A DNA stretch of 64,000 nucleotides from an uncultured Prevotellaceae bacterium (GTDB lineage: Bacteria; Bacteroidota; Bacteroidia; Bacteroidales; Bacteroidaceae): positions 30,507 to 94,506 of the forward strand of contig ONAG01000003.1 in the NCBI GenBank assembly GCA_900315745.1, read 5' to 3'. Positions 51,890 through 64,000 of this stretch are shown one piece after another (position 1 is the stretch's first letter; the number at the start of each line of letters is the position of its first letter). The notes below the pieces were generated by a model. The model ran no database searches. It saw nothing but the letters and a program-made list of their open reading frames with translations, and was not told the DNA's origin. The translations under genes were made by a program, and so were the position numbers.

Positions 51890-52975
51890 ATGGCAGAACA
51901 AGAAGTAACATTGATGAAAGGCAATGAGGCGATAGCTCATGCCGCCATTCGCTGTGGTGCAGACGGGTACTTCGGATACCCCATCACACCTCAGAGTGAA
52001 GTGATAGAGACGCTGTGCGCCCTGAAGCCTTGGGAGACCACCGGCATGGTGGTGGTGCAGGCAGAGAGCGAGGTAGCCTCCATCAACATGGTTTATGGTG
52101 CAGCCGGTGCGGGCAAGAAAGCCCTGACATCATCGTCAAGCCCTGGCGTGGCTCTCATGCAAGAAGGCATAGCCTACTTGGCAGGTGCCGAGTTGCCAGG
52201 AGTATTTGTCAACGTTCAGCGCGGCGGTCCCGGTCTTGGCACCATCCAGCCGTCCCAGAGCGACTATTTCCAAGCCACACGTGGTGGTGGCAATGGCGAC
52301 TACTACGTCATCACCCTGGCACCCTCATCGGTGCAAGAGATGGCTGATTTTGTGGACTTGGCATTCGAACTTGCCTTCAAGTACCGCAACCCTGCAATGA
52401 TTCTCTCCGATGGTGTCATTGGTCAGATGATGGAGAAGATAGTGCTGCCTCCTTACAAGCGTCGCCGCACCGACGAGGAAGTGATAGAGCAATGCCCATG
52501 GGCATCGGTAGGCAAGCCCCGCAACCGTCAAGTCAACGTCATCACCTCTTTGGAACTGAAGCCAGAGGTCATGGAAGAGCGCAACATCCATTTGCAGGCA
52601 AAATATCAGGAAATCAGGGAAAAGGAGGTAAGATACGAGACCATGCATTGCGATGATGCCGAATATCTTATTGTGGCATTCGGTAGTGCAGCCCGCATCT
52701 CGGAGAAAGCCATCGAACTGGCACGTGCCGAGGGCATAAAGGTAGGTTTGCTGCGCCCAATCACTGTATGGCCATTCCCCAGCAAGGAAGTAGCATCCCT
52801 GGCACGCGGCAAGAAAGGAGTCTTGGTAGCAGAGATCAATGCCGGTCAGATGGTGGAAGACGTGCGTCTTGCCATCAACGGTGAAGTTCCTGTGGAGTAT
52901 TTCGGCAGACTCGGCGGCATAGTGCCAGAGCCGGAAGAGATAGTAGAGGCATTGAAAACCAAATTGATGAAGTGA
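51890..52975 (+). CDS. vorB: 2-oxoacid:ferredoxin oxidoreductase alpha subunit (VorB-type)
   Basis: KGNEA, GYPITPQSE, QAESE, SSSPG, QRGGPGLG. Confidence 0.88.
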   Translation: MAEQEVTLMKGNEAIAHAAIRCGADGYFGYPITPQSEVIETLCALKPWETTGMVVVQAESEVASINMVYGAAGAGKKALTSSSSPGVALMQEGIAYLAGAELPGVFVNVQRGGPGLGTIQPSQSDYFQATRGGGNGDYYVITLAPSSVQEMADFVDLAFELAFKYRNPAMILSDGVIGQMMEKIVLPPYKRRRTDEEVIEQCPWASVGKPRNRQVNVITSLELKPEVMEERNIHLQAKYQEIREKEVRYETMHCDDAEYLIVAFGSAARISEKAIELARAEGIKVGLLRPITVWPFPSKEVASLARGKKGVLVAEINAGQMVEDVRLAINGEVPVEYFGRLGGIVPEPEEIVEALKTKLMK

Positions 52976-53745
52976 TGGAAGCAAACGAAATAATCAGCCC
53001 TGAGAACCTGGTTTACAAGAAACCGACTCTCTTGAACGACAACCCCATGCACTACTGCCCTGGGTGCTCCCACGGCGTGGTCCACAAGCTCATAGCCGAA
53101 GTGATAGAAGAAATGGGCATGGAAGAGAAGACCATCGGCGTGTCGCCAGTAGGATGCGGCGTATTTGCATACAGGTATATCGACATAGACTGGCAGGAAG
53201 CCGCCCATGGTCGTGCTCCCGCCGTAGCCACAGGCATCAAGCGCCTCTGGCCCGACCGTCTGGTGTTCACCTACCAAGGAGATGGCGACCTCGCTTGCAT
53301 TGGAGCTTGCGAGACCATCCACGCCCTCAACCGTGGCGAGCACATTGTCATCATCTTCATCAACAATGCCATTTATGGCATGACAGGCGGCCAGATGGCA
53401 CCTACCACCCTCATTGGTCAGAAGACATCCACCTGTCCATACGGTCGTGAGCCAGCCTTGCATGGTTATCCCTTGAAAATGACAGAGATAGCCGCCACCC
53501 TCGAAGGCACCTGCTATGTCACCCGCCAGAGTGTGGAGAATGTGGCAGCCATCCGCAAGGCAAAGAAAGCCCTGCGCAAGGCATTCGAGGCTTCGATGGC
53601 AGGAAAAGGCTCCTCGCTTGTGGAGTTTGTGAGCACCTGCAACAGCGGATGGAAGCTCACCCCGAAGCAAGCCAACGAATGGATGCAGGAAAACATGTTC
53701 AAGTTCTATCCCAAAGGCGACTTGAAGGATACCACTGGAGAATAA
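52972..53745 (+). CDS. 2-oxoacid:ferredoxin oxidoreductase ThDP-binding beta subunit
   Basis: YCPGCSHG, PVGCG, HGRA, GDGD, NNAIYGMTGGQ; start may be 52975. Confidence 0.92.
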   Translation: MMEANEIISPENLVYKKPTLLNDNPMHYCPGCSHGVVHKLIAEVIEEMGMEEKTIGVSPVGCGVFAYRYIDIDWQEAAHGRAPAVATGIKRLWPDRLVFTYQGDGDLACIGACETIHALNRGEHIVIIFINNAIYGMTGGQMAPTTLIGQKTSTCPYGREPALHGYPLKMTEIAATLEGTCYVTRQSVENVAAIRKAKKALRKAFEASMAGKGSSLVEFVSTCNSGWKLTPKQANEWMQENMFKFYPKGDLKDTTGE

Positions 53746-53772
53746 GCGGAAACCCAAAAAGCAGAAAAAGAC

Positions 53773-54315
53773 ATGAAAAAAGAAATCATCATATCCGGCT
53801 TCGGCGGACAGGGAGTGCTCTCCATGGGCAAGATTTTGGCATACTCCGGCCTGATGGAAGGCAAGGAAGTGACATGGATGCCCGCTTATGGCCCCGAACA
53901 ACGTGGCGGCACTGCCAACGTCACCGTCATTGTCAGCGACGAGCGCATATCGTCGCCCATCCTCAGCCGATACGACATCGCCATCGTGCTCAACCAGCCC
54001 TCACTCGACAAGTTTGAGCCAAAGGTGAAGCCAGGCGGCATTCTCATTTACGACAGTTACGGCATCATCAACCCGCCCACGCGCAAGGACATCGAGGTCT
54101 ATAGCATCAATGCCATGGACAAGGCAGCCGAGATGAAGAATGCAAAGATTTTCAACATGATAGTGCTTGGCGGCTTGTTGCATGTATGTCCTGTCATCAC
54201 CAGTGCAGGACTGGAGAAAGCCCTTCGCAAGACACTTCCCGAGCGTCACCACAATCTAATCCCTCTCAACATGGAGGCATTACGCACTGGCGGTGAAATC
54301 ATGGAAAAGAAATGA
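53773..54315 (+). CDS. 2-oxoacid:ferredoxin oxidoreductase gamma subunit
   Basis: SGFGGQGVL, YGPEQRGG, NMIVLG. Confidence 0.92.
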   Translation: MKKEIIISGFGGQGVLSMGKILAYSGLMEGKEVTWMPAYGPEQRGGTANVTVIVSDERISSPILSRYDIAIVLNQPSLDKFEPKVKPGGILIYDSYGIINPPTRKDIEVYSINAMDKAAEMKNAKIFNMIVLGGLLHVCPVITSAGLEKALRKTLPERHHNLIPLNMEALRTGGEIMEKK

Positions 54316-54319
54316 CAAC

Positions 54320-54350
54320 AATCCCCACCTCAATCGGGTGGGGATTTTTT
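54320..54350. terminator. Intrinsic terminator
   Basis: aatccccacc / ggtggggatt 10-bp stem followed by a T-run. Confidence 0.85.
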
Positions 54351-54374
54351 ATTGATAAAAGGCAACGCCTTGGT

Positions 54375-55547
54375 TCACAAATTCTTATTGAAGAACTGCA
54401 GCATCCTTTCCTGCACCCTGAATCCACAAGAATGTGGTATCTCCCAAATCTCCGTCTCCAACTTGCTGTCAGCCCCCTGACTCTTCCATGTGTCGTGCAT
54501 GGTCTTGAAAGCCGCCTCCACGCCACGTATGGGAAAGAGATGGTCTTTTGTGCCATTGATGAAGAGCATTGGCTTAGGGCAAGCCATTGACGCTATGTGA
54601 GGATAGTCGAGATATTGCCGCAAACCAGGGAGGCAGTTGGCAAAGCCCCCATTTTCCTTCTTCTTGTCGGCAGTTGACATCTGCACGTCGGTAGTCACCA
54701 TCCAGCAAATGGCAGCACCCGCCTTGATGCGGTCGGAGAGAGCCGACAACATCCATGCGCGGTATGCCCCCATGGAGCATCCAAGGCATCCTATTCGCTT
54801 GTTGTCCACCATTGGCAATGTTGCCATGAAGTCGGTGGAATAGATATCGTCATAGTGCATGAATCCACAGAGGTCACGGCCAAGCATCATCATGTTGCCA
54901 GCAATGATGTCATACTTGCTGCGGTCAACACCTTCCTCCCGACCACGCTCCCCCCACAGAGGCGCATCCATGGAAAACACCACATATCCGTTTTTGGCAA
55001 GATAGTCGCCCACGAACTGTCCTTCGTATAGGTTGTCTGCCCATGCCTGTGCATCGTCGAGGACCTCCTGCTCCACGCCGAACGGCCGAATCATCTTTTC
55101 TTTTCCTATAAACAAATGAGCCCCATGGTCGTGTAGTGCATTGATGGCAGGGAAAGGACCTTTTCCATCAGGAATGAGCAAGTAGGCAGTCACCTTTGAA
55201 TACGCATTCACCTGAAAAGCAATGCGTTGCGCAGTATATCCATCACGTTTTTCGGTGGCGAGCACCTCATAATCAAACTTCTCCACCGGTCTCGGTGGAG
55301 TCATCATGCACTCGAAGACTTTCTTTCTTGCCTCCTTCTTCCATTTGGCAAAATTCTTTATCGGGCTGTTACCCCAAGCCAAGGGATAAGTGAGTTCCTT
55401 CTTCAACTGCTCAACATATACAGGCAATTCAAAAGAATACTCGAAATTCCCTCTTTTTTGCACAGGCTTCTTCTGAGCCTTCACCGGCAAGGAAATCCCC
55501 AAAGCAAAAAGCAGGGCGAAAAACAATGAAAAATGTTTAAATATCAT
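54375..55547 (-). CDS. Secreted alpha/beta hydrolase (dienelactone-hydrolase-like esterase)
   Basis: Signal peptide, AYLLIP, LHDHG, GCSMG nucleophile elbow, NGTKDHLF, C-terminal HSC; TATTTTTG box at 55577-55584. Confidence 0.8.
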   Translation of the reverse strand: MIFKHFSLFFALLFALGISLPVKAQKKPVQKRGNFEYSFELPVYVEQLKKELTYPLAWGNSPIKNFAKWKKEARKKVFECMMTPPRPVEKFDYEVLATEKRDGYTAQRIAFQVNAYSKVTAYLLIPDGKGPFPAINALHDHGAHLFIGKEKMIRPFGVEQEVLDDAQAWADNLYEGQFVGDYLAKNGYVVFSMDAPLWGERGREEGVDRSKYDIIAGNMMMLGRDLCGFMHYDDIYSTDFMATLPMVDNKRIGCLGCSMGAYRAWMLSALSDRIKAGAAICWMVTTDVQMSTADKKKENGGFANCLPGLRQYLDYPHIASMACPKPMLFINGTKDHLFPIRGVEAAFKTMHDTWKSQGADSKLETEIWEIPHSCGFRVQERMLQFFNKNL

Positions 55548-55656
55548 ATTTGTTTCAAGCAGATTTGTTCGTGCGACAAAAATACTTCTTTTTCCCGACA
55601 AACGAAAACAAATGTCAGGAAAAAACGACAGGAGCACAAGGAAAAGAAGAGGGGGA

Positions 55657-55765
55657 GAGGATGGAAGAGGAGACAAGAGGATATAAGAGGGTGGAGAGGA
55701 TGAAGAGGATGAAGAGGATGAAGAGGATGAAGAGGAGGGAGGGATGGAGAGGATGGAGAGGATGG
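55657..55765. repeat. Purine-rich 9-nt tandem array GAGGATG(A/G)A
   Basis: gaggatgaa x4 plus degenerate copies. Confidence 0.8.
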
Positions 55766-55822
55766 CATTCCTCTAAAAAAACTTAAATAGACAATGAAAG
55801 GACATGATATAATGAGAAAAAC

Positions 55823-56182
55823 ATGTACTTTTACATCGTGAAAGGACAAAAGCTACAAGGCAAATGGCAGGCATGGGTGCTGATAATGGTGTTCGTGCCA
55901 ATGATGATGTTGTCCTTTTTCCATGTACATGCGTCAGAAACCAACATCACCACAGAATGCCATGAATGCCTGCTCCACATCCATCACAGCCATTTTGGCT
56001 CAGCCGACCAATGCATCGACCAATGCGTGCTGTGCCAGTTCCTGAGCCTCACATTCATATCCCTCACCTCGGCAATAATCCTGTTTGCCCCCATTGGCAG
56101 CAAACATAATAATATTATTGCCACCATTGCCGCCACCGACAACACATCATGCCGGATAAGCGGAAGAGCACCCCCGATGTGA
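55823..56182 (+). CDS. DUF2946/CruR-like upstream ORF: N-terminal TM, two CxxC motifs, His cluster, C-terminal RAPP
   Basis: WVLIMVFVPMMMLSFFHVH; CHEC, HIHHSH, CVLC; ends SGRAPPM-stop. Start could be GTG 55838 after a TACTTTTA near-promoter box. Confidence 0.75.
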   Translation: MYFYIVKGQKLQGKWQAWVLIMVFVPMMMLSFFHVHASETNITTECHECLLHIHHSHFGSADQCIDQCVLCQFLSLTFISLTSAIILFAPIGSKHNNIIATIAATDNTSCRISGRAPPM

Positions 56183-56206
56183 CACTCCTTGTTTTTTCAT
56201 TTTACT

Positions 56207-56234
56207 CTTGTTGTGGATGACAATTCACAACAAG
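56207..56234 (+). promoter_or_regulatory. 12-bp hairpin in the uORF-TBDR spacer
   Basis: cttgttgtggat-gaca-attcacaacaag; a second irregular hairpin (gatgc/gcatc, agg/cct) follows. Confidence 0.5.
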
Positions 56235-56316
56235 CATAACTACGTGTGGAGATGCGAGAGGCAGAAGTCCTCGAACAGCATCCTCACGCGAAACAAACAA
56301 AGACTACACATCAATT

Positions 56317-58668
56317 ATGAAAAAAGCATACAGCATACTCCTACTACTATGTGTTGTAGTGGGTGCAATGGCAGACCTGCCAGCCAATTACACGACGCTG
56401 AAAGGAACGGTGAAAGATGCCGTGGACAACGAGCCACTAATAGGCGTCACTTTATACATACCCGAACTGAAGACCACCACGGTGACCGACATCAACGGTC
56501 GGTACCAATTTGAAAGACTGCCAAAAAAGACGGTAACCATCCAAGTGAGCTATGTAGGCCACCAAACCATCATAAAGGAAGCAGACCTATCTTTAGAGAC
56601 AAGCATCGACTTCACGATGCAAGAAAGCAATGCGATGATAAACGAAGTTGTGGTGACCGGCATAGCGGGGAGCCAACTGTTGAAAGACTCCCCCACCCCA
56701 GTTACCATCGTCAGCCAGCGCGACATGCAGACCACCACTTCCACAAACATCATCGACGCCATAGCCCGCCAGCCAGGACTGGCACAGGTGACCACCGGCA
56801 GCGGCATCTCAAAGCCCGTGATACGTGGACTGGGCTACAACCGCATCGTGACAGTGTCCGACGGCATCCGCCAAGAAGGACAGCAATGGGGCGACGAACA
56901 TGGCATAGAAGTAGATGCGAACAGCGTACACAGCATAGAGATACTGAAAGGTCCAGCCTCGCTGATGTATGGGTCAGACGCCATGGCGGGAGTGGTGATA
57001 TTCCACGGAAAGCCCTCTTTGCCTTTAGGACAAATACGCGGCTCCGCCTCCACCGAATACCAAAGCAACAATGGCATGATGTCATATTCCTTAGGCATTG
57101 GCGGCAACCAGCACGGCAACGTGTGGAACGTGCGCTATTCGGAAAAGATGGCACATGCCTACAAGAACAGATACGACAGCTACGTGCTGGGCACCCAATG
57201 GCGCGAGCGAGCCGTAAGCGGCATGGCAGGCATCAACCGCCAATGGGGCTTCAGTCACCTCAAGCTGAGCTACTACCATCTCACACCCACCATGACAGAA
57301 GGCGAACGCGACGAGACAACAGGAGAATTTCTCAAGCCCGACTTTATAAATGGTGAAGAGACTATGACTACAGCCACGCGCCACGACATGCACACCTACA
57401 GCCACGGTTTCCCCTATCAGCAAGTTCGGCATTACAAGGCTGTTGCAGACCAATCCATATACATAGGCAACGGCACACTGCAACTTGTAATGGGTTACCA
57501 GAACAACCGCCGCCAGGAATTCGAGGAGGTGGAGACACCCAACGACTGCGGTCTCGACTTCATGCTTCACACCATCATTTGCAACGCCAACTATTCGTGG
57601 CAAGGAGGCGAACGGCTGAAACTGAATGCCGGTATCAGCGGACTTTGGCAGCAATCGATAAACCGAGGAGAAGAATATCTCATCCCCGACTACGTACACA
57701 ACGACATCGGAGGATACGCCACAGCAGGTTACAAGATGAGAGGATGGTCGTTCAGCGGCGGTCTTCGTCTGGATCGTCGCCACGTACACGCTTTCGCCCT
57801 TGGCGACCGTTTCGCACGCATCTCCCGTTCTTTCGACGCCGTCACAGGCAGTGTGGGAGCCGTGCGCAGCATAGGCGAGAATTCCAACTTGCGAATCAAC
57901 GTGGCACGTGGGTTCCGCGCACCCAACCTCAGCGAACTTGGTTCGAATGGAGAACACGAAGGCACCTTCCGCTATGAGGTAGGCAACGCGCAGCTCAATC
58001 CAGAATACAGTTGGCAAGCCGACATAGGCTGGGACTACACCTCCCCTATCGTGTCGGCACAGCTGTCACTATTCGCCAACATCATCGACAACTACATCTT
58101 CGCCAACCGCAACGGCAACGTGACAGAAGAAGGGACACCAGTATATGTCTTCACCCAAGGCGACGCACGACTCCTTGGCGGCGAGGCCACCATCGACATC
58201 CATCCAATAGACCGTCTGCACTTTGAAAACAGCTTCTCGTTTGTGGATGCCCGTCAGTCACACCAGCCAGCCGACAGGCGTTATCTTCCCCGCACTCCAG
58301 CCCCCAGATGGGTGTCGGAAATAAGCTACGACCTCGTGCGCGATGGGAAAGTGCTAAACAACACCTTCATAAGCTTCGGCTTGGAATGTTATCTGCGACA
58401 AGACCACATCTATTCCGCCGACGACACAGAGACAGCCACGCCATCCTACACACTGCTCAACTTCTCAGCAGGCACCGACATCCTATGGCACCGGCACAAT
58501 GTGTGCACGTTGACATTCACCGCCGACAACCTGACAGACAGAGCCTATCAAAGTCACCTCAGCAGACTGAAATATGCTGGTTTAAATCCCAAGACAGGTC
58601 GTCAAGGAATCTACAACATGGGGCGCAATTTCTGCATCAAGGCATCATTCCCAATAAGGGTGAAATAA
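56317..58668 (+). CDS. TonB-dependent outer-membrane receptor, probably for a metal or metallophore
   Basis: Signal peptide, CarboxypepD_reg-like N-domain, plug GISKPVIRG...EGQQWGDEHG...KGPASLMYG, RGFRAPNLSEL, YNMGRNF; not followed by a susD-like gene. Confidence 0.9.
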   Translation: MKKAYSILLLLCVVVGAMADLPANYTTLKGTVKDAVDNEPLIGVTLYIPELKTTTVTDINGRYQFERLPKKTVTIQVSYVGHQTIIKEADLSLETSIDFTMQESNAMINEVVVTGIAGSQLLKDSPTPVTIVSQRDMQTTTSTNIIDAIARQPGLAQVTTGSGISKPVIRGLGYNRIVTVSDGIRQEGQQWGDEHGIEVDANSVHSIEILKGPASLMYGSDAMAGVVIFHGKPSLPLGQIRGSASTEYQSNNGMMSYSLGIGGNQHGNVWNVRYSEKMAHAYKNRYDSYVLGTQWRERAVSGMAGINRQWGFSHLKLSYYHLTPTMTEGERDETTGEFLKPDFINGEETMTTATRHDMHTYSHGFPYQQVRHYKAVADQSIYIGNGTLQLVMGYQNNRRQEFEEVETPNDCGLDFMLHTIICNANYSWQGGERLKLNAGISGLWQQSINRGEEYLIPDYVHNDIGGYATAGYKMRGWSFSGGLRLDRRHVHAFALGDRFARISRSFDAVTGSVGAVRSIGENSNLRINVARGFRAPNLSELGSNGEHEGTFRYEVGNAQLNPEYSWQADIGWDYTSPIVSAQLSLFANIIDNYIFANRNGNVTEEGTPVYVFTQGDARLLGGEATIDIHPIDRLHFENSFSFVDARQSHQPADRRYLPRTPAPRWVSEISYDLVRDGKVLNNTFISFGLECYLRQDHIYSADDTETATPSYTLLNFSAGTDILWHRHNVCTLTFTADNLTDRAYQSHLSRLKYAGLNPKTGRQGIYNMGRNFCIKASFPIRVK

Positions 58669-58754
58669 GATGAGATAAAGCATGAAAACAACCCTCTTAG
58701 GGGAGATTTTTATGTTTTTTCTCCCAGGGGAGCATCATCATCCAATAAAAAAGT

Positions 58755-58762
58755 TATCTTTG
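58755..58762 (+). promoter_or_regulatory. -7 promoter box
   Basis: TATCTTTGC; places the start at 58784. Confidence 0.7.
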
Positions 58763-58783
58763 CATTCTAAACACCCAACAATC

Positions 58784-61156
58784 ATGCAACTACTTAAAAC
58801 CCTTCTAACAATAATCATTACACCCCTATTGGCTTCAAACACCCTATTGGCAGCCAATACGCCGACAGTGAAGACCGACAAACGCTTTGCCCGCGGTGCC
58901 ACCATGGCATTCGGGCGAATGAGCTACACGGGAGTGTCATCATACGACGTGACAGAACAAGGATTCTGTTATGGAGAATGCGACGAGCCAACCATCAATG
59001 ACAGCCGCACCACCAAGTACCTCGAAAACAACGGGCGCATCTACTGGCTTGAGAACCTGAAGCCAGCCACAGAATACCACATGCGTGCATACGTCATCAC
59101 AAGAAGCGGCCAAGTGGGATACGGAGACGTGATAAGATTCTACACCATACCAAAAGGACAAATCACCCTTACCATGCGCTCAAGCAGCGACGCGGCAGCC
59201 GACGCACGCATCAAGACGGCAGCCGAGACAGCCATCAACTACTGGAACAACCTGACCGAGATGAAGGGATTCGCACCCAACATCGGCTACAACAGCGGCG
59301 TGCCAACGGCAGAATGCTCCTACGGAGGATGGATGAGCGTGGGCAGCAACCAGTCGTACCAGCGGCCAGGCACCATCATGCACGAGATGCTTCATGGGAT
59401 TGGCGTGATACCATGGGCAGACACCGAATGGAGCCGCTTCAACCTGCGCTCAGGAACATCCAATGGTGCAGGCTTCACCACTGGCTCCGGCCTGTGGCTC
59501 GGCGACAGAGTGACCGAGGTGCTTCGCTTCTGGGACAACAGCACCACATCGCAGCTCAACGGCGACTACCAGCACATGTGGCCCTATGGCATCAACGGGG
59601 CACACGAGGACAACGGCAGCGATGTTCTGTATATCGGCAACTCGCTGATATGCCAGGCTTTGGGAGAAGACGGACTGCAACACACCAGCCAAATATTCGC
59701 CGAACCCTACCACGCCTTCGACCACCAGAAAGACGTGAAATACTACATCAAGAACGAGGATGCCGAAAGAGGACTATACACCTCATACCTTATTGTCAAC
59801 AGCAGTGGCATTCTGACATGGCGCGCCTTGTCACCCGACGAGGCAACAGCCAATGACAGTTGCGCCTGGACAATAAGCTTCACGCCAGAAAACCAATACT
59901 ACCAATTGCGCAACGTGGCAACAGGCAGATACATATCCTACTCGTTCAACACCATGCGCACGACACCACGCACGACACCCACAAGCAGCGAGAACTTCCA
60001 ATTAATGAAAGGAAGGGTGGATGTGGAAGCCACAGGGCATAGAGGCTATTGGATAATACACCCCGAGACCAACTGGTCTCCACTCTGCCTGCAAGCCAAT
60101 GCCAACGGCGCCACAGGGGCAGCCACCTTCAACATCGCCAACAACGCAACAGCACAACGGTGGCTGATACTAACCGAAGAGGAAATGCGCTCAATCGACA
60201 ACTACATGGTGGCAGAGATGCAAAACCAAGTGAACATGAGACTCGACCATATAAGAGCTCTCCTGGCCGTGCCGCACTCAGAAGATGTCGAAGGAGTGGA
60301 TGCAGCACTCGAAGGCAAGGTGAGCGACATAGAACAACAGATGGCAAACGCCAACACCACCCAACTGATGGCACTCGCCGACGAAGCCACACAAGCCACA
60401 TTCAACTTCCTCTGCAATGCCACACCAAGAGACATGGACCAACCATTCGACCTCACCTACATGATGCAGAACCCAGGCCTGGACAGCACCGAAGGATGGT
60501 CGGACTCACCAACCCTCAACTACTCCTGCGCCGAATACTACCAGATGACATTCGACTTCTACCAAATCGTGAAGAACCTGCCCGGCGGCACCTATCAGAT
60601 GCGCAGCAACGCCTTCCAACGCCCAGGCAAGGCAGAGGAATGCACCGACAGGACAACCACCGCATACATATATGCCGGCAGCGACAGCCGCAACTTGGCA
60701 CACATCACCTCAGACGCGCAAACCAAGAAATTGGGAGGCGCAGAGTCGTATGTCAACGGCAAATACTTCCCCAACGACATGCAGGCGGCAAGCATATACT
60801 TCGGCAAAGGACTATATGAGAACCATGTGACAACAAGCCTCGCAAACGATGGCGGACAGCTAAGGATGGGCATAAGAGGAACCACTGCCGACGGTTACTA
60901 TTGGAGCATCTTCGACAATTTCCGCCTTTACTATTATGGTTCGCTCGATTCCGACAGAGTGGATGGTTACCACTGGATGAAAGGCGACGTGAACTGCGAC
61001 GGTACGGTGTCAGTGGCCGACGTTACAGAACTCGTGCAGCATATTCTTGGCATCACACCCAAAATATTCAGCTTCAAGGCAGCAAATGTAAACGAAGACA
61101 ATGATATATCCGTGGCAGACGTAATAGGCATAGTGGACATCATTCTCGGAAACTGA
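58784..61156 (+). CDS. Secreted FN3 + HExxH zincin-like + beta-trefoil-like + NPxF module + dockerin protein
   Basis: LKPATEYHMRAY (FN3), MHEMLHG, HMWPYG, YQLRNVATGRY, C-terminal GDVNCDG...ANVNEDND dockerin-like pair (60983-61156). Confidence 0.7.
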   Translation: MQLLKTLLTIIITPLLASNTLLAANTPTVKTDKRFARGATMAFGRMSYTGVSSYDVTEQGFCYGECDEPTINDSRTTKYLENNGRIYWLENLKPATEYHMRAYVITRSGQVGYGDVIRFYTIPKGQITLTMRSSSDAAADARIKTAAETAINYWNNLTEMKGFAPNIGYNSGVPTAECSYGGWMSVGSNQSYQRPGTIMHEMLHGIGVIPWADTEWSRFNLRSGTSNGAGFTTGSGLWLGDRVTEVLRFWDNSTTSQLNGDYQHMWPYGINGAHEDNGSDVLYIGNSLICQALGEDGLQHTSQIFAEPYHAFDHQKDVKYYIKNEDAERGLYTSYLIVNSSGILTWRALSPDEATANDSCAWTISFTPENQYYQLRNVATGRYISYSFNTMRTTPRTTPTSSENFQLMKGRVDVEATGHRGYWIIHPETNWSPLCLQANANGATGAATFNIANNATAQRWLILTEEEMRSIDNYMVAEMQNQVNMRLDHIRALLAVPHSEDVEGVDAALEGKVSDIEQQMANANTTQLMALADEATQATFNFLCNATPRDMDQPFDLTYMMQNPGLDSTEGWSDSPTLNYSCAEYYQMTFDFYQIVKNLPGGTYQMRSNAFQRPGKAEECTDRTTTAYIYAGSDSRNLAHITSDAQTKKLGGAESYVNGKYFPNDMQAASIYFGKGLYENHVTTSLANDGGQLRMGIRGTTADGYYWSIFDNFRLYYYGSLDSDRVDGYHWMKGDVNCDGTVSVADVTELVQHILGITPKIFSFKAANVNEDNDISVADVIGIVDIILGN
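58871..60765 (+). repeat. Copy 1 of a ~1.9 kb nucleotide-level duplication (copy 2 at 62103-64000)
   Basis: Long identical runs, e.g. gccaccatggcattcgggcgaatgagctacacgggagt and cagtcgtaccagcggcc, in both copies at an offset of about 3232. Confidence 0.9.
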
Positions 61157-61214: not shown

Positions 61215-64000
61215 ATGAAAAAAGTCAAGACATTACTGATGGCAGCCATCGCCATCTTCTGCACAGCAGGGGCATCGGCACAAGACCTTCATGACATCAC
61301 CACATTCTACATCACCAATGCGGGATTCGACACGGACTTCGACTATACCATCCATGACACCGGCAATGTGGCACAAGAGATCCTTGAAGTGAAAGGATGG
61401 ACAAAGAACTTCAGTGCCAACTACACCATCACGGGAGTATATCAGATAGGCACTAAAAAGACATTCAACGGGGCGCCCGTACCAGCCACCGGACAAGACG
61501 GCACCACCCAGGGCGGCGTGCTCGCCCTGAGCACCGGATGGTCGCAGTCGATGCTGTTCTATCAAGAGGTGGAACTGCCAAAGGGCAAATACGCCCTTGT
61601 CTCCGCTTTTTGGAATGGTGTGGATAAGACAACCGGCAGAAGTCGTGTGTCATGGATGCCCACCGGACAAGCCATGAATCAATCGACGGTGGCATCCTTC
61701 CCCACCGGCACATGGATTACCGACACCATACGCTTCGAGTTGACCACCAACACCAAGGGGAGAATACAGATAGGATTCTTCGCCAATGGCGACAGCGGTT
61801 CGGCAAACTTTGCCAAGCCATGCCTTGACTTCGTGAAACTGCTGCGCGACAGCGACATCAATGAAGACGACATAGCAGTCTATAAACACAAGCTGCAAGA
61901 CCTGCTCGACAATGCCAACACCCTGTACGCCGACGGCAGCGGCGAGGGAGCGGCAGCGCTGAAGACCGCCATAGACGCAGCACAAGCAGTCATGGATGAC
62001 AGAGGCGCCACAAAGACACAAGTCGATGACGCCTGCGCACAACTTGAGGCAGCCATCGACACATATCTTTGGGCAAATCCCACAGGCAGCAAGCCATCGG
62101 TAAAGACCGACACCCGCTATGCTCGTGGAGCCACCATGGCATTCGGGCGAATGAGCTACACGGGAGTTGCTGTCGCCGACGTGGTGGAACAAGGATTCTG
62201 CTACGGCGAATGCGACGAGCCAACCATCAATGACAGCCGCACCACCAAGTATCTCGAAAACAACGGGCGCATCTACAAGCTCGACGACCTCAAGCCCGGC
62301 ACAGAATACCACATGCGCGCATACGTCATCACCAAAGGACGTCAGGTGGGATATGGAGACGTGATAAGATTCTACACCATACCAAAAGGACAAATCAACC
62401 TCTCCTTCCGCTCAAGTAGTGACGCGGCAGCCGACGCACGCATCAAGGCGGCAGCCGAGACAGCCATCAACTACTGGAACAACCTGACCGAGATGAAGGG
62501 ATTCACACCCAACATCGGCTACAACAGTGGCGTGCCAACGGCAGAATGCTCCTACGGAGGATGGATGAGCGTGGGCAGCAACCAGTCGTACCAGCGGCCG
62601 GGCACCATCATGCACGAGATGCTCCACGGCTGCGGCGTGATACCCTGGGCAGACACCGAATGGAGCCGCTTCAACCTGCGCTCCGGAACATCCAACGCAC
62701 CCGGCTTCGTTGTCGGCTCCGGCTTGTGGCTCGGCGACAGAGTGACAGAGGTGCTTCGCTTCTGGGACAACAGCACCACCTCGCAACTCAACGGCGACTA
62801 CCAGCACATGTGGCCCTATGGCATCAACGGGGCAAGTGAGGACAACGGCACCGAATTGCTCTACATAGGCAATTCCTTGGTATGTCAGGCATTGGGAGAA
62901 GACGGACTGCAGCACACCAACCAGCTATTCGCCGAACCCTACCACGCCTTCGACCACCAGAAAGACGTGAAATACTACATCAAGAACGAGGATGCCGAGC
63001 GCGGACTATACACATCATACCTCATGCCCACCAGCAGCGGCACTCTGACATGGCGCGCCATGACACCCGACGAAGCCGCAGCCAACGACAGTTGTGCATG
63101 GTACATCGACTTCACACCATCCAACCAATATTATCAACTGCATAACGCCGCCACAAACCAATACCTCACATACAGCACATCCACCATACGCACCGTGGCA
63201 CGCACAACACCTATGGCAAGCGACAACTTCCAAATGATGAAAGGCAGAGTGGATGTTGGCTCGAAAGGCATCAGAGGCTACTGGATAATACACCCGACAG
63301 CCAACTGGTTGCCGGCTTGCCTCCAAGCCAACGCCAACGGCACCACCACAACCGCCACCTTCGACATCGCCAATAGTGCTACAACACAGAGATGGCTCAT
63401 TCTCAACGAAGAGGAGATGCGCACACTCAACACACTGCTTCTGGCAGACATGATAAAGACAGTGAACACAAAAATAGAACACATAAAAGCCTTGGCAGAA
63501 GTTCCCCACACGGAAGATGTGGAGGGCACTGACGATGCTCTCGCCAACGCCTTGGGCAGCATCGAGCAACGACTGGCAACGGCGGCAAGCACCACCGAAC
63601 TACAAGCATTGGCAGACGAAGCCGAACAAGCAGCATTCTCTTTCCTTTGCAACGCCACTCCAAGCGACATGGAACAGCCCTTCGACCTGACATACATGAT
63701 GACCAACCCCGACATGAGCAGCACCGACGGATGGTCGGACTCACCCACAGTGAACTTCTCATGTGCAGAATATTATGAGAAGACCTTCGACTTCAACCAG
63801 ACCATAAAGAACCTGCCCGGCGGCACATACCAATTGCGCTGCAACGCCTTCCAACGTCCTGGCAAGGCAGAAGAATGCACAAACCGACAAACCACCGCCT
63901 ACATCTATGCAGGAACCAAGAGCGAACGATTAGCACACATCACTTCGGGAGCACAAGCCACCAAACAAGGAGGAAGCGAATCATACGTGGGCGGGAAATA
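61215..64000 (+). CDS. Paralogous secreted HExxH protein with extra N-terminal NxGFD and FIVAR-like domains (3' truncated; absent from the ORF track)
   Basis: Translated manually: MKKVKTLLMAAIAIFCTAGASAQDLHDIT...; frame stays open into the duplicated FN3/MHEMLHG module and to the window end. Confidence 0.8.
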   Translation, partial: MKKVKTLLMAAIAIFCTAGASAQDLHDITTFYITNAGFDTDFDYTIHDTGNVAQEILEVKGWTKNFSANYTITGVYQIGTKKTFNGAPVPATGQDGTTQGGVLALSTGWSQSMLFYQEVELPKGKYALVSAFWNGVDKTTGRSRVSWMPTGQAMNQSTVASFPTGTWITDTIRFELTTNTKGRIQIGFFANGDSGSANFAKPCLDFVKLLRDSDINEDDIAVYKHKLQDLLDNANTLYADGSGEGAAALKTAIDAAQAVMDDRGATKTQVDDACAQLEAAIDTYLWANPTGSKPSVKTDTRYARGATMAFGRMSYTGVAVADVVEQGFCYGECDEPTINDSRTTKYLENNGRIYKLDDLKPGTEYHMRAYVITKGRQVGYGDVIRFYTIPKGQINLSFRSSSDAAADARIKAAAETAINYWNNLTEMKGFTPNIGYNSGVPTAECSYGGWMSVGSNQSYQRPGTIMHEMLHGCGVIPWADTEWSRFNLRSGTSNAPGFVVGSGLWLGDRVTEVLRFWDNSTTSQLNGDYQHMWPYGINGASEDNGTELLYIGNSLVCQALGEDGLQHTNQLFAEPYHAFDHQKDVKYYIKNEDAERGLYTSYLMPTSSGTLTWRAMTPDEAAANDSCAWYIDFTPSNQYYQLHNAATNQYLTYSTSTIRTVARTTPMASDNFQMMKGRVDVGSKGIRGYWIIHPTANWLPACLQANANGTTTTATFDIANSATTQRWLILNEEEMRTLNTLLLADMIKTVNTKIEHIKALAEVPHTEDVEGTDDALANALGSIEQRLATAASTTELQALADEAEQAAFSFLCNATPSDMEQPFDLTYMMTNPDMSSTDGWSDSPTVNFSCAEYYEKTFDFNQTIKNLPGGTYQLRCNAFQRPGKAEECTNRQTTAYIYAGTKSERLAHITSGAQATKQGGSESYVGGK
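62103..64000 (+). repeat. Copy 2 of the ~1.9 kb duplication
   Basis: Aligns by eye with 58871-60765. Confidence 0.9.

Follow-up and report, generated by a model that had tools for sequence, protein, structure and literature searches.

A 64,000-nt stretch of DNA from an uncultured Prevotellaceae bacterium (GenBank assembly GCA_900315745.1, contig ONAG01000003.1, positions 30,507 to 94,506; called the window here, and numbered from its first letter) contains a short upstream open reading frame (uORF) that ends in the codons for Arg-Ala-Pro-Pro (RAPP) and one further residue, and is followed by a gene for a TonB-dependent receptor (TBDR). The uORF is probably, though by no means assuredly, a regulatory ORF of the CruR/CutF (DUF2946-like) type that controls translation of the TBDR, with a stalled ribosome unmasking the TBDR leader and metal sufficiency acting as the OFF state. 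The computed support for this is membership in a family, invariance and spacing of motifs, synteny with TBDRs, and a long-range RNA helix, or clamp, with a predicted response to ribosome stalling. The class to which such a switch would belong is already known, from CruR in 2022, CutF in 2023/2025, and a motif survey in 2025. To our knowledge, the Bacteroidales subfamily, its Cys4/His5 signature, its 43-residue ruler, its association with two receptor clades, and its anti-leader clamp are undescribed in the literature searched.

A family of short ORFs ending in RAPP

The uORF encodes the peptide MYFYIVKGQKLQGKWQAWVLIMVFVPMMMLSFFHVHASETNITTECHECLLHIHHSHFGSADQCIDQCVLCQFLSLTFISLTSAIILFAPIGSKHNNIIATIAATDNTSCRISGRAPPM, followed by a UGA stop codon. 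The hydrophobic N-terminus, CHEC, HIHHSH, CVLC, and SGRAPPM-stop that a preliminary description of this locus had noted in an ORF of 119 amino acids (aa) are all found where it placed them. The parts of the uORF and the receptor gene are as follows, with the basis for each in brackets.

55823-56182, + strand: uORF, 119 aa, predicted nascent-chain sensor, divergent DUF2946/CruR-like, C-terminus RAPP-Met-stop (sequence, family hidden Markov model [HMM])
55871-55921, + strand: first transmembrane segment (TM1) or signal-anchor, residues 17-33 (AWxLLxVFVPMLxLS), with a basic N-terminus ahead of it (family hydropathy, conservation, AlphaFold2 [AF2], hhalign)
55922-55993, + strand: predicted periplasmic ligand loop, with HxH at residues 34-36, the first CxxC at 46-49 (CHEC), and H52, H55, and H57 (within HIHHSH, 52-57) (conservation)
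56024-56041, + strand: second CxxC, in CVLCQF, residues 68-73 (CVLC, 68-71), the equivalent of the DUF2946 CXXC (conservation, hhalign)
56036-56098, + strand: second hydrophobic segment, residues 72-92, poorly kept in sequence (hydropathy, position within AF2 helix 69-109)
56099-56164, + strand: linker of fixed length without sequence conservation, residues 93-114, forming the 43-residue ruler together with the second hydrophobic segment (spacing counts)
56165-56176, + strand: RAPP, residues 115-118, codons AGA GCA CCC CCG, predicted arrest site (invariance, analogy to the CruR toeprint)
56317-58668, + strand: TBDR, 783 aa, clade A, putative regulated gene (Pfam CarbopepD_reg_2, Plug, and TonB barrel)

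The same order of parts runs through the whole family: a basic N-terminus, TM1, HxH, CxxC-x2-H-x2-H-x-H, CVLCQF, the hydrophobic segment 72-92, the linker, RAPP, and a short variable tail, which in the window is Met119 alone. AF2 models the window peptide as a confident helical hairpin (helices 10-33 and 69-109; pLDDT 77), and hydropathy and the modeled helix together indicate that the N-terminus would fit a signal peptide or an N-in transmembrane segment.

A word-indexed homology search with the uORF returned one cluster of 95% identity, and exhaustive searching with HMMER exposed a family that comprises at least 368 clusters when grouped at 50% identity (E ≤ 1e-3), nearly all of the representatives being 105-130 aa long. 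Motifs were counted in the best 150 of these representatives, which are pairwise <50% identical. R[A/G/S]PP is present in 144 of the 150 (RAPP in 116, RGPP in 25, and RSPP in 3; the expectation from shuffled sequences is 0.0004). The conservation of RAPP among relatives, on which the preliminary description had made its proposal depend, is thus borne out by 141 of the 150 representatives if only R[A/G]PP is counted. The tail after RAPP is 1-9 residues long in these representatives, with a mode of 3; overall, the residues 3' of RAPP differ in sequence and in number, from 1 to 18.

Conservation within the peptide is uneven. In an alignment of 109 family members (A1), C46, C49, C68, C71, R115, P117, and P118 are invariant, and H34, H36, H52, H55, and H57 are kept at ≥90%. 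Hence, both CxxC motifs and the His cluster are family-wide rather than peculiar to the window copy. Of 140 members, 130 have 43 residues between the second CxxC and the Arg of RAPP, and every member falls within 42-44; the 22 residues that precede RAPP are nearly information-free, at 0.4-0.7 bits per column. The codons of RAPP vary synonymously between loci; indeed, a 95%-identical relative (L024) carries GCA→GCC within the motif. Selection therefore acts on RAPP as a peptide.

The family HMM matches the window once, at this uORF (E 1e-35), so there is no paralogue, and none of the other ORFs of ≥40 aa in any frame of the window ends in R[AG]PP. Most of the family is missed by Pfam and NCBIfam as they now stand: every annotated match, whether in Prevotella, Bacteroidales, or Bacteroidaceae, is named “hypothetical protein,” and a precomputed PF11162 assignment exists for 1 of 120 family matches. 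Two matches are unusual. A called protein of 496 aa (P0127) begins with the TM1/CxxC region of the uORF family and continues with TBDR-like sequence; this is probably a frameshift or a gene-calling fusion across a short spacer, and fits the adjacency of the two genes. A highly repetitive protein of 1847 aa (P0019) is matched by the uORF query 11 times along its length (E 8e-14) by virtue of a recurring Cys/His unit (...GCSISGA...SKHVHITSP) and has no RAPP; the match is probably compositional or motif-based, and the protein unrelated to the uORF family.

Relationship to DUF2946

How is this family related to CruR and CutF? The family consensus scores 26.1 bits against PF11162, the Pfam model of DUF2946, for which the gathering cutoff is 23.7; residues 14-113 align to positions 9-117 of the 117-position profile, and the alignment ends at RAPP. 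A natural member, P0199, passes the model as well (25.0 bits), nearly over its full length and again ending at RAPP. Weak DUF2946 matches are seen for 59 of the 109 members of A1, and any other Pfam family matches at most five members. The DUF2946 search proposed in the preliminary description thus succeeds for the family consensus and fails for the window protein, which has no match at E ≤ 1. Judged by sequence, the window protein lies outside DUF2946 as Pfam defines it, and its family straddles the threshold.

Alignment A1 was also compared by hhalign with an alignment (A2) of 13 RefSeq-annotated proteobacterial DUF2946 proteins from the source data of PMC12992588, a list that is itself RAPP-selected. 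The two are related with a probability of 88.4% (E 2.8e-6) over 112 collinear columns, which bring into register the basic/AW.. start of TM1, the second CxxC with CGYC, and RAPP. In genuine DUF2946 proteins, the CxxC-RAPP spacing is 44-47 residues by the same counting, with a mode of 46. The Bacteroidales branch has a ruler three residues shorter, and in addition an invariant CxxC (46-49) and the His cluster. We conclude from these alignments that the uORF family is a sister branch of DUF2946 in Bacteroidales, divergent and at the limit of detection. The suggestion that the locus holds a Bacteroidales counterpart of the CruR/CutF switch is supported in this respect, by the collinear architecture, the hhalign probability of 88%, and a consensus above the Pfam cutoff.

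Linkage to TonB-dependent receptors

In the window, exactly 134 nt separate the stop codon of the uORF from the start of the TBDR on the same strand. This arrangement and the lack of a SusD partner had been reported in the preliminary description, and Pfam and TIGR04056 scores agree with it: the TBDR is not SusC-type (99.5 bits against a TIGR04056 cutoff of 368), and no SusD domain was found in the gene after it (58682-61156).

The linkage is conserved. A scan of metagenomes for the pattern CVLCQF-N123-R[AG]PP gave at least 120 loci (L025-L144), of which 106 were evaluable. A TBDR lies directly 3' of the uORF in 14 of 14 genomic loci and in 106 of 106 evaluable loci among the metagenomic matches listed, which bears out the synteny of RAPP/RGPP ORFs with TBDRs that had been proposed for checking. 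Conversely, the uORF is present at all five orthologous TBDR loci that have upstream sequence (from Prevotellaceae metagenome-assembled genomes and Segatella copri). Eight diverse members on long contigs each lie immediately 5' of a TBDR with Plug and barrel domains, in neighborhoods that are otherwise unrelated. No RAPP-type uORF was found at distant TBDR homologues of Sphingobacteriia and Chitinophagia (L006-L012).

Two clades, ~28% identical to one another, make up the linked TBDRs. One of them, clade B, comprises the TBDRs of L017, L019, and L022 and, among the matches listed, of 27 of L025-L144. In L017, L019, and L022, the next gene encodes a DUF4625 lipoprotein, a proposed “lid” of the TonB-dependent transporter (TBDT), of the BT1419/BT1420 type from Bacteroides thetaiotaomicron.

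What might these receptors transport? At least three His occur in residues 16-45 of 53 of 109 linked TBDRs (among the matches listed), often as a run after the signal peptide, such as AQDHHNHHNH or AQNEHHHHNH; receptors of this kind include those of L029, L035, L059, and L095. The window TBDR has a CarboxypepD_reg-like domain at its N-terminus instead of a His run. His-rich mature N-termini suggest a metal cation as the substrate, and judging from sequence the substrate is probably a metal cation or a metal chelate. Against the PDB, the window TBDR matches weakly and in the plug domain only, with ZnuD and heme receptors as the best hits. All NCBIfam matches to it are far below their cutoffs and assign no substrate, and none was found in the literature on BT1420/BT1419 and Zn-limited Bacteroides.

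A predicted helix linking the end of the uORF to the receptor leader

The preliminary description had noted two hairpins in the spacer. The one at 56207-56234 is real and can be extended to 56202-56239, and the second is at 56244-56289. In the minimum-energy fold, both are enclosed by a long-range clamp, 56176-56198/56290-56312, that joins the end of the uORF to the leader of the TBDR. The RNA elements, all from folding, are as follows.

56176-56198, + strand: anti-leader, the 5' arm of the clamp, comprising the last base of the Pro118 codon, the Met119 codon, the UGA stop, and 16 nt
56202-56239, + strand: inner hairpin 1, with a 12-bp core, 56207-56218/56223-56234
56244-56289, + strand: inner hairpin 2
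56290-56312, + strand: A-rich TBDR leader, -27 to -5 relative to the AUG, the 3' arm of the clamp

Folding of 56140-56340 yields a z-score of -4.2, and 0 of 200 shuffled sequences were as stable. The sequestered leader, GAAACAAACAAAGACUACACAUC, is A-rich and has no GGAGG-like element. Such a leader without a Shine-Dalgarno (SD) sequence is expected in Bacteroidota, a phylum largely devoid of SD-based initiation. The anti-leader lies within or beside the footprint of a ribosome stalled at RAPP. To model the stall, the first Pro codon was placed in the P site, as in the CruR toeprint, and positions P-12 to P+15 were forced to be unpaired. With the ribosome at RAPP, the predicted cost of opening the TBDR region from -20 to +10 falls from 7.94 to 4.61 kcal/mol, a difference (ddG) of 3.3, which 0 of 30 shuffles of the post-RAPP segment reached. 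A control footprint 30 nt upstream has almost no effect; the opening cost stays at 7.2 kcal/mol. Rfam contains no known RNA family that matches 55600-56500.

The predicted effect of a stall was mixed for the first 14 loci. An independent set of 54 de-replicated metagenomic loci gave a median ddG of 3.6 kcal/mol versus -0.03 for the upstream-footprint control. The ddG exceeded 1 kcal/mol in 40 of the 54 loci with the stall and in 12 of the 54 with the control, and 25 of the 54 loci beat all 30 of their shuffles, against an expectation of ~1.7 (P = 3.5e-23; Wilcoxon p = 1.8e-8). For the metagenomic loci, a simple signal-peptide heuristic was used to choose TBDR start codons, a source of noise that should not create a clamp signal. 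In examples drawn from unrelated loci, the geometry is the same: the stem begins right 3' of RAPP and takes in the tail codons and the stop, its 3' arm stops 2-25 nt short of the TBDR AUG, and there is no U-tract. When 66 lineages were classified by minimum free energy (MFE), 49 (74%) had a clamp, 11 a local hairpin, and 6 no structure. An intrinsic terminator as the general output was rejected, since MFE classification assigns one to 1 of the 66 lineages. Constraint on the post-RAPP tail as RNA would account for its variation in length and sequence.

One subclade, represented by L021 (28 loci, for example L028, L106, L109, and L127), has a different arrangement. Here a short local hairpin, for example GCCUCCUUCAG...CUGAAGGAGGC, takes its 5' arm from the RGPP and tail codons; UUUU often comes next, then an AU-rich leader and a conserved AAUCACAGAAUG start context. 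By a loose criterion applied without a control, 14 of the 28 loci are terminator-like. The hairpin is possibly an attenuation variant of the switch.

A model for control of receptor translation

In the model that we favor, the basic N-terminus and TM1 would bring the nascent chain to the inner-membrane translocon, such that the HxH/CxxC/HxxHxH/CxxC loop is exposed on the periplasmic side. The ribosome would then arrest at R-A-P-P, exactly 43 residues beyond the second CxxC, with Pro codons in the P and A sites; by analogy to the CruR toeprint (PMC12992588), the predicted occupants of the P and A sites are Pro117 and Pro118, respectively. The arrested ribosome would cover the first bases of the anti-leader (56176-56198), freeing the leader (56290-56312) and allowing the receptor to be translated. 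Upon release of the arrest, termination would occur one codon on, the clamp would re-form, and the receptor would be off. By analogy to CruR, the release signal is likely to be metal on the Cys4/His cluster that alters the pulling force on the nascent chain.

We infer that RAPP arrests Bacteroidales ribosomes, that the Cys4/His5 loop binds metal, and, again by analogy, that a metal-dependent change in pulling force, exerted through a CxxC 43 residues from the peptidyl-transferase center, could release the arrest. The polarity in which the stall is ON and metal sufficiency is OFF is favored on the precedent of CruR. Since the RNA adjacent to RAPP pairs with the leader and a stalled ribosome is predicted to open it, the output is probably a SecM/CutF-like unmasking of an SD-less leader in most lineages, including the window. 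The preliminary description was right that there is no SD sequence to occlude, but a different mechanism is not forced, because the A-rich leader is occluded instead. The output that it thought probable, termination or RNA stability, is not favored: there is no terminator on the + strand, and the leader-sequestering helix is the dominant conserved feature.

Several observations weigh against this model. Direct Pfam and NCBIfam scans of the window protein were both empty. The two characterized relatives, CruR and CutF, have opposite polarities. The clamp energies are thermodynamic predictions that depend on chosen windows and an assumed footprint (P-12 to P+15), and in the window relief would be only partial, because in the stalled state the U-run 56192-56200 can still form weak pairs with AUGAAAAAA at the start of the TBDR. 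The clamp is missing from about a quarter of lineages, including the abundant L021-like subclade and L001, whose TBDR is the closest relative of the window TBDR in the genome scan (71% identity) and for which ddG is -0.19; MFE classification still places a 3' arm 21 nt from the AUG in L001. The close relative L024 shows no covariation in the clamp, and is uninformative in this respect because its divergence is too low. On the transcriptional side, the preliminary description had found no consensus TAnnTTTG promoter in the spacer, and this holds for the + strand. Since there is none on the + strand anywhere in 52750-58755, the uORF's own promoter was not located, and no transcription start site was found. 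Scans for sigma-70 promoters and terminators gave background levels, with no + strand terminator. Metatranscriptome contigs cover the uORF, spacer, and TBDR at low depth that is flat over the neighboring genes, and one such contig crosses the divergent intergenic region, such that DNA carry-over is possible. Co-transcription of the uORF and the TBDR is thus weakly supported.

Comparison with known systems

Arrest peptides of this kind have been described in some detail. RAPP and RGPP are the strongest arrest motifs, are refractory to EF-P, and are under-represented in proteomes, with those of Bacteroidota no exception (PMC12992588); uORFs that end in them are enriched before TonB-dependent receptors throughout Gram-negative bacteria (PMC12992588, EMBO J 2025). 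CruR arrests ribosomes in vitro with Pro codons in the P and A sites, and arrest was also seen for ApdA and ApdP (PMC12992588). Both CruR and CutF couple copper sensing to expression of the downstream gene (PMC9426467; bioRxiv 10.1101/2025.02.05.636593), and in the CruR system metal sufficiency shuts off uptake (PMC9426467). The CXXC-RAPP spacing of 45 in CruR is kept within 1-2 residues and is functionally required (Roy et al., PMC9426467).

CruR (Bp2923), which precedes BfrG in Bordetella pertussis, is the closest parallel. Like the uORF described here, it is a small exported or anchored peptide encoded by the first gene before a TBDT; it carries a CxxC, a rigid spacing from there to RAPP, and RAPP itself within a few residues of the C-terminus, and the two are remotely homologous (hhalign 88%). 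The differences are considerable. The host phylum, Bacteroidota, is absent from the CruR survey, and most Bacteroidales members score below the Pfam threshold. The Bacteroidales peptides have an additional invariant CxxC and five conserved His, and a ruler of 43 rather than ~46 residues. Their spacers are mostly 33-90 nt long and structured, whereas the CruR intergenic region is 162 nt with 72% GC. Unmasking of the leader is predicted as the output here, in place of Rho termination. The downstream TBDRs are not of the OprC/TonB-copper type, and no PepSY gene is next to them.

CutF, which precedes cutO in Rhodobacter capsulatus (PMC9973294), is likewise a DUF2946 protein in which a nascent chain, exported during its translation, senses a periplasmic metal, and in which a stall at a C-terminal Pro-rich motif melts a stem-loop that hides the downstream initiation region; the clamp described here is predicted to be opened in the same way. 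However, CutF is induced by Cu and acts on the gene for a detoxifying multicopper oxidase, whereas the gene here is for an uptake receptor, and the CutF stem shields an SD ribosome-binding site (RBS) rather than an A-rich, SD-less leader. SecM, ApdA, and ApdP share a C-terminal R-A-[G/P]-P core at the peptidyl-transferase center, an export signal, a stalled ribosome that remodels downstream RNA to turn the next gene on, and release by pulling force. In contrast to the family here, they monitor Sec/YidC activity, have no Cys/His ligand loop, and regulate other genes. The uORF catalogue of PMC12992588 covers the same class, and its source tables hold three members of the family, WP_175549510.1, WP_018462630.1, and WP_091843536.1 (the last named “DUF2946 domain-containing protein” in RefSeq), without an analysis of the subfamily, the Cys4/His5 signature, the 43-residue ruler, the TBDR clades, or the clamp. 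The same tables list other Bacteroidota uORFs that end in RGPP/RAPP before TBDRs or resistance-nodulation-division (RND) genes and are His-rich without CxxC pairs, such as GRFL_RS16640, LH29_RS02950, and LH29_RS20135. Bacteroidota therefore have several classes of such peptides.

Alternative explanations

Could the logic of the switch be the reverse? If the system worked as CutF does, metal or the transported substrate in the periplasm would induce or prolong the stall, and the receptor would be substrate-induced. Cu does induce CutF stalling, which opens a stem-loop covering the RBS of the next gene (bioRxiv 10.1101/2025.02.05.636593), the same RNA logic as that of the clamp, and no computed result fixes the sign. 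Uptake receptors are usually repressed by sufficiency, however, and the TBDT-linked CruR behaves in this way, which makes the CutF-like polarity rather unlikely. The output could also differ. In the CruR-BfrG pair, the only characterized uORF-TBDT pair of the family, a stalled ribosome shields the transcript from Rho, and release leads to Rho termination (PMC9426467); here, this would occur in the spacer or early TBDR, and the helix would be secondary. The spacers of L001, L016, L021, and L023 would suit such a mechanism, being unstructured and strongly G-depleted (C/G 4-7) with little or no clamp effect, and untranslated TBDR mRNA would meet Rho polarity anyway. The window spacer, by contrast, is highly structured (z -4.2) with a C/G of only 1.3, most spacers, at 33-90 nt, are short for a Rho utilization (rut) site, and a pure Rho mechanism leaves the clamp statistics unexplained. 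We consider it quite unlikely as the principal output; as a parallel or alternative output, especially in G-depleted, unstructured spacers, Rho termination is possible.

A more radical alternative is that the peptide is a stable two-helix inner-membrane metal-binding protein, serving as a periplasmic acceptor or chaperone, such that RAPP is structural and the RNA helix incidental. The AF2 model is a confident hairpin (pLDDT 77), the Cys4/His5 loop resembles a genuine metal site, CxxC-x18/19-CxxC is like the C4 zinc ribbons, and a few members weakly match TraR/DksA C4 models. A structural role is hard to reconcile with 22 residues before RAPP that are fixed in length yet carry no sequence information, or with the interchange of RAPP and RGPP where nothing else interchanges; both make a purely structural peptide unlikely. 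Moreover, RAPP is followed by 1-18 residues of variable sequence, their codons are constrained as RNA, and RAPP and RGPP are strongly counter-selected in ordinary proteins (PMC12992588). Taken together, these points make this explanation very improbable, and the finished peptide could instead have a second role alongside stall-dependent leader unmasking, which we continue to prefer.

Which metal would be sensed? The preliminary description suggested that the doubled CxxC and the His cluster tune the peptide to Ni, Zn, or Co instead of Cu, which is pure speculation. A more specific proposal is that the Bacteroidales subfamily senses a non-copper metal and that one sensor design, acting by SD-less leader unmasking, serves two unrelated receptor clades. 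Zinc is the leading candidate because of the Cys4 (CxxC-x18/19-CxxC) and His5 site, the ZnuD-like best matches of the TBDR, and the His-rich receptor N-termini. We regard this proposal as tentative and doubtful as a whole.

Functional implications

Post-transcriptional control in Bacteroidota is poorly understood, and we know of no translation-arrest peptide characterized in the phylum. What, then, would such a switch mean? First, a nascent membrane peptide is predicted to couple periplasmic metal status to translation of an outer-membrane importer; if the non-copper reading is true, Bacteroidota would gain its first described arrest-peptide riboregulator. Second, the system offers a direct test of whether RAPP arrest and ribosome-driven leader unmasking work without SD. 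Third, it is a natural comparison, in which the CruR/CutF design may have been retuned in ligand set, ruler length, and output. Fourth, the family spans hundreds of rumen and gut lineages of Prevotella/Segatella, and could provide a way into the study of how dominant commensals of gut and rumen acquire trace metals. The system is compact, with two genes and a sequence-defined architecture, and its carriers include cultivable species such as Segatella copri and Prevotella of the Hungate collection.

Neighboring genes and upstream region

The gene after the TBDR (58682-61156, + strand) encodes an 824-aa secreted protein with HEMLH (HExxH), a ricin-type lectin-like region, and a C-terminal dockerin-like domain. 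It is excluded from the module because its position is not conserved in L002 or in the eight contexts that were looked up. A tandem paralogue of this gene is suggested beyond ~61200 by the similarity of antisense ORFs at 58940-59161 and 61650-62393. On the other side, the divergent neighbor (54375-55676, - strand) encodes an Abhydrolase_7/S9-like esterase, and a homologous Abhydrolase_7 gene lies near the uORF-TBDR pair in L021; this recurrence may be a coincidence.

Immediately 5' of the uORF, the divergent intergenic region contains a GA-rich tandem array (55630-55764) with a 9-nt unit, AGAGGATGA, in ~12 copies and with nested periods of 38/44 nt. In contigs of two RNA runs (X25 and X27), 55652-55765 is replaced by 52 unrelated nt. 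The array thus appears to vary between strains, and it could affect the promoter of the uORF.

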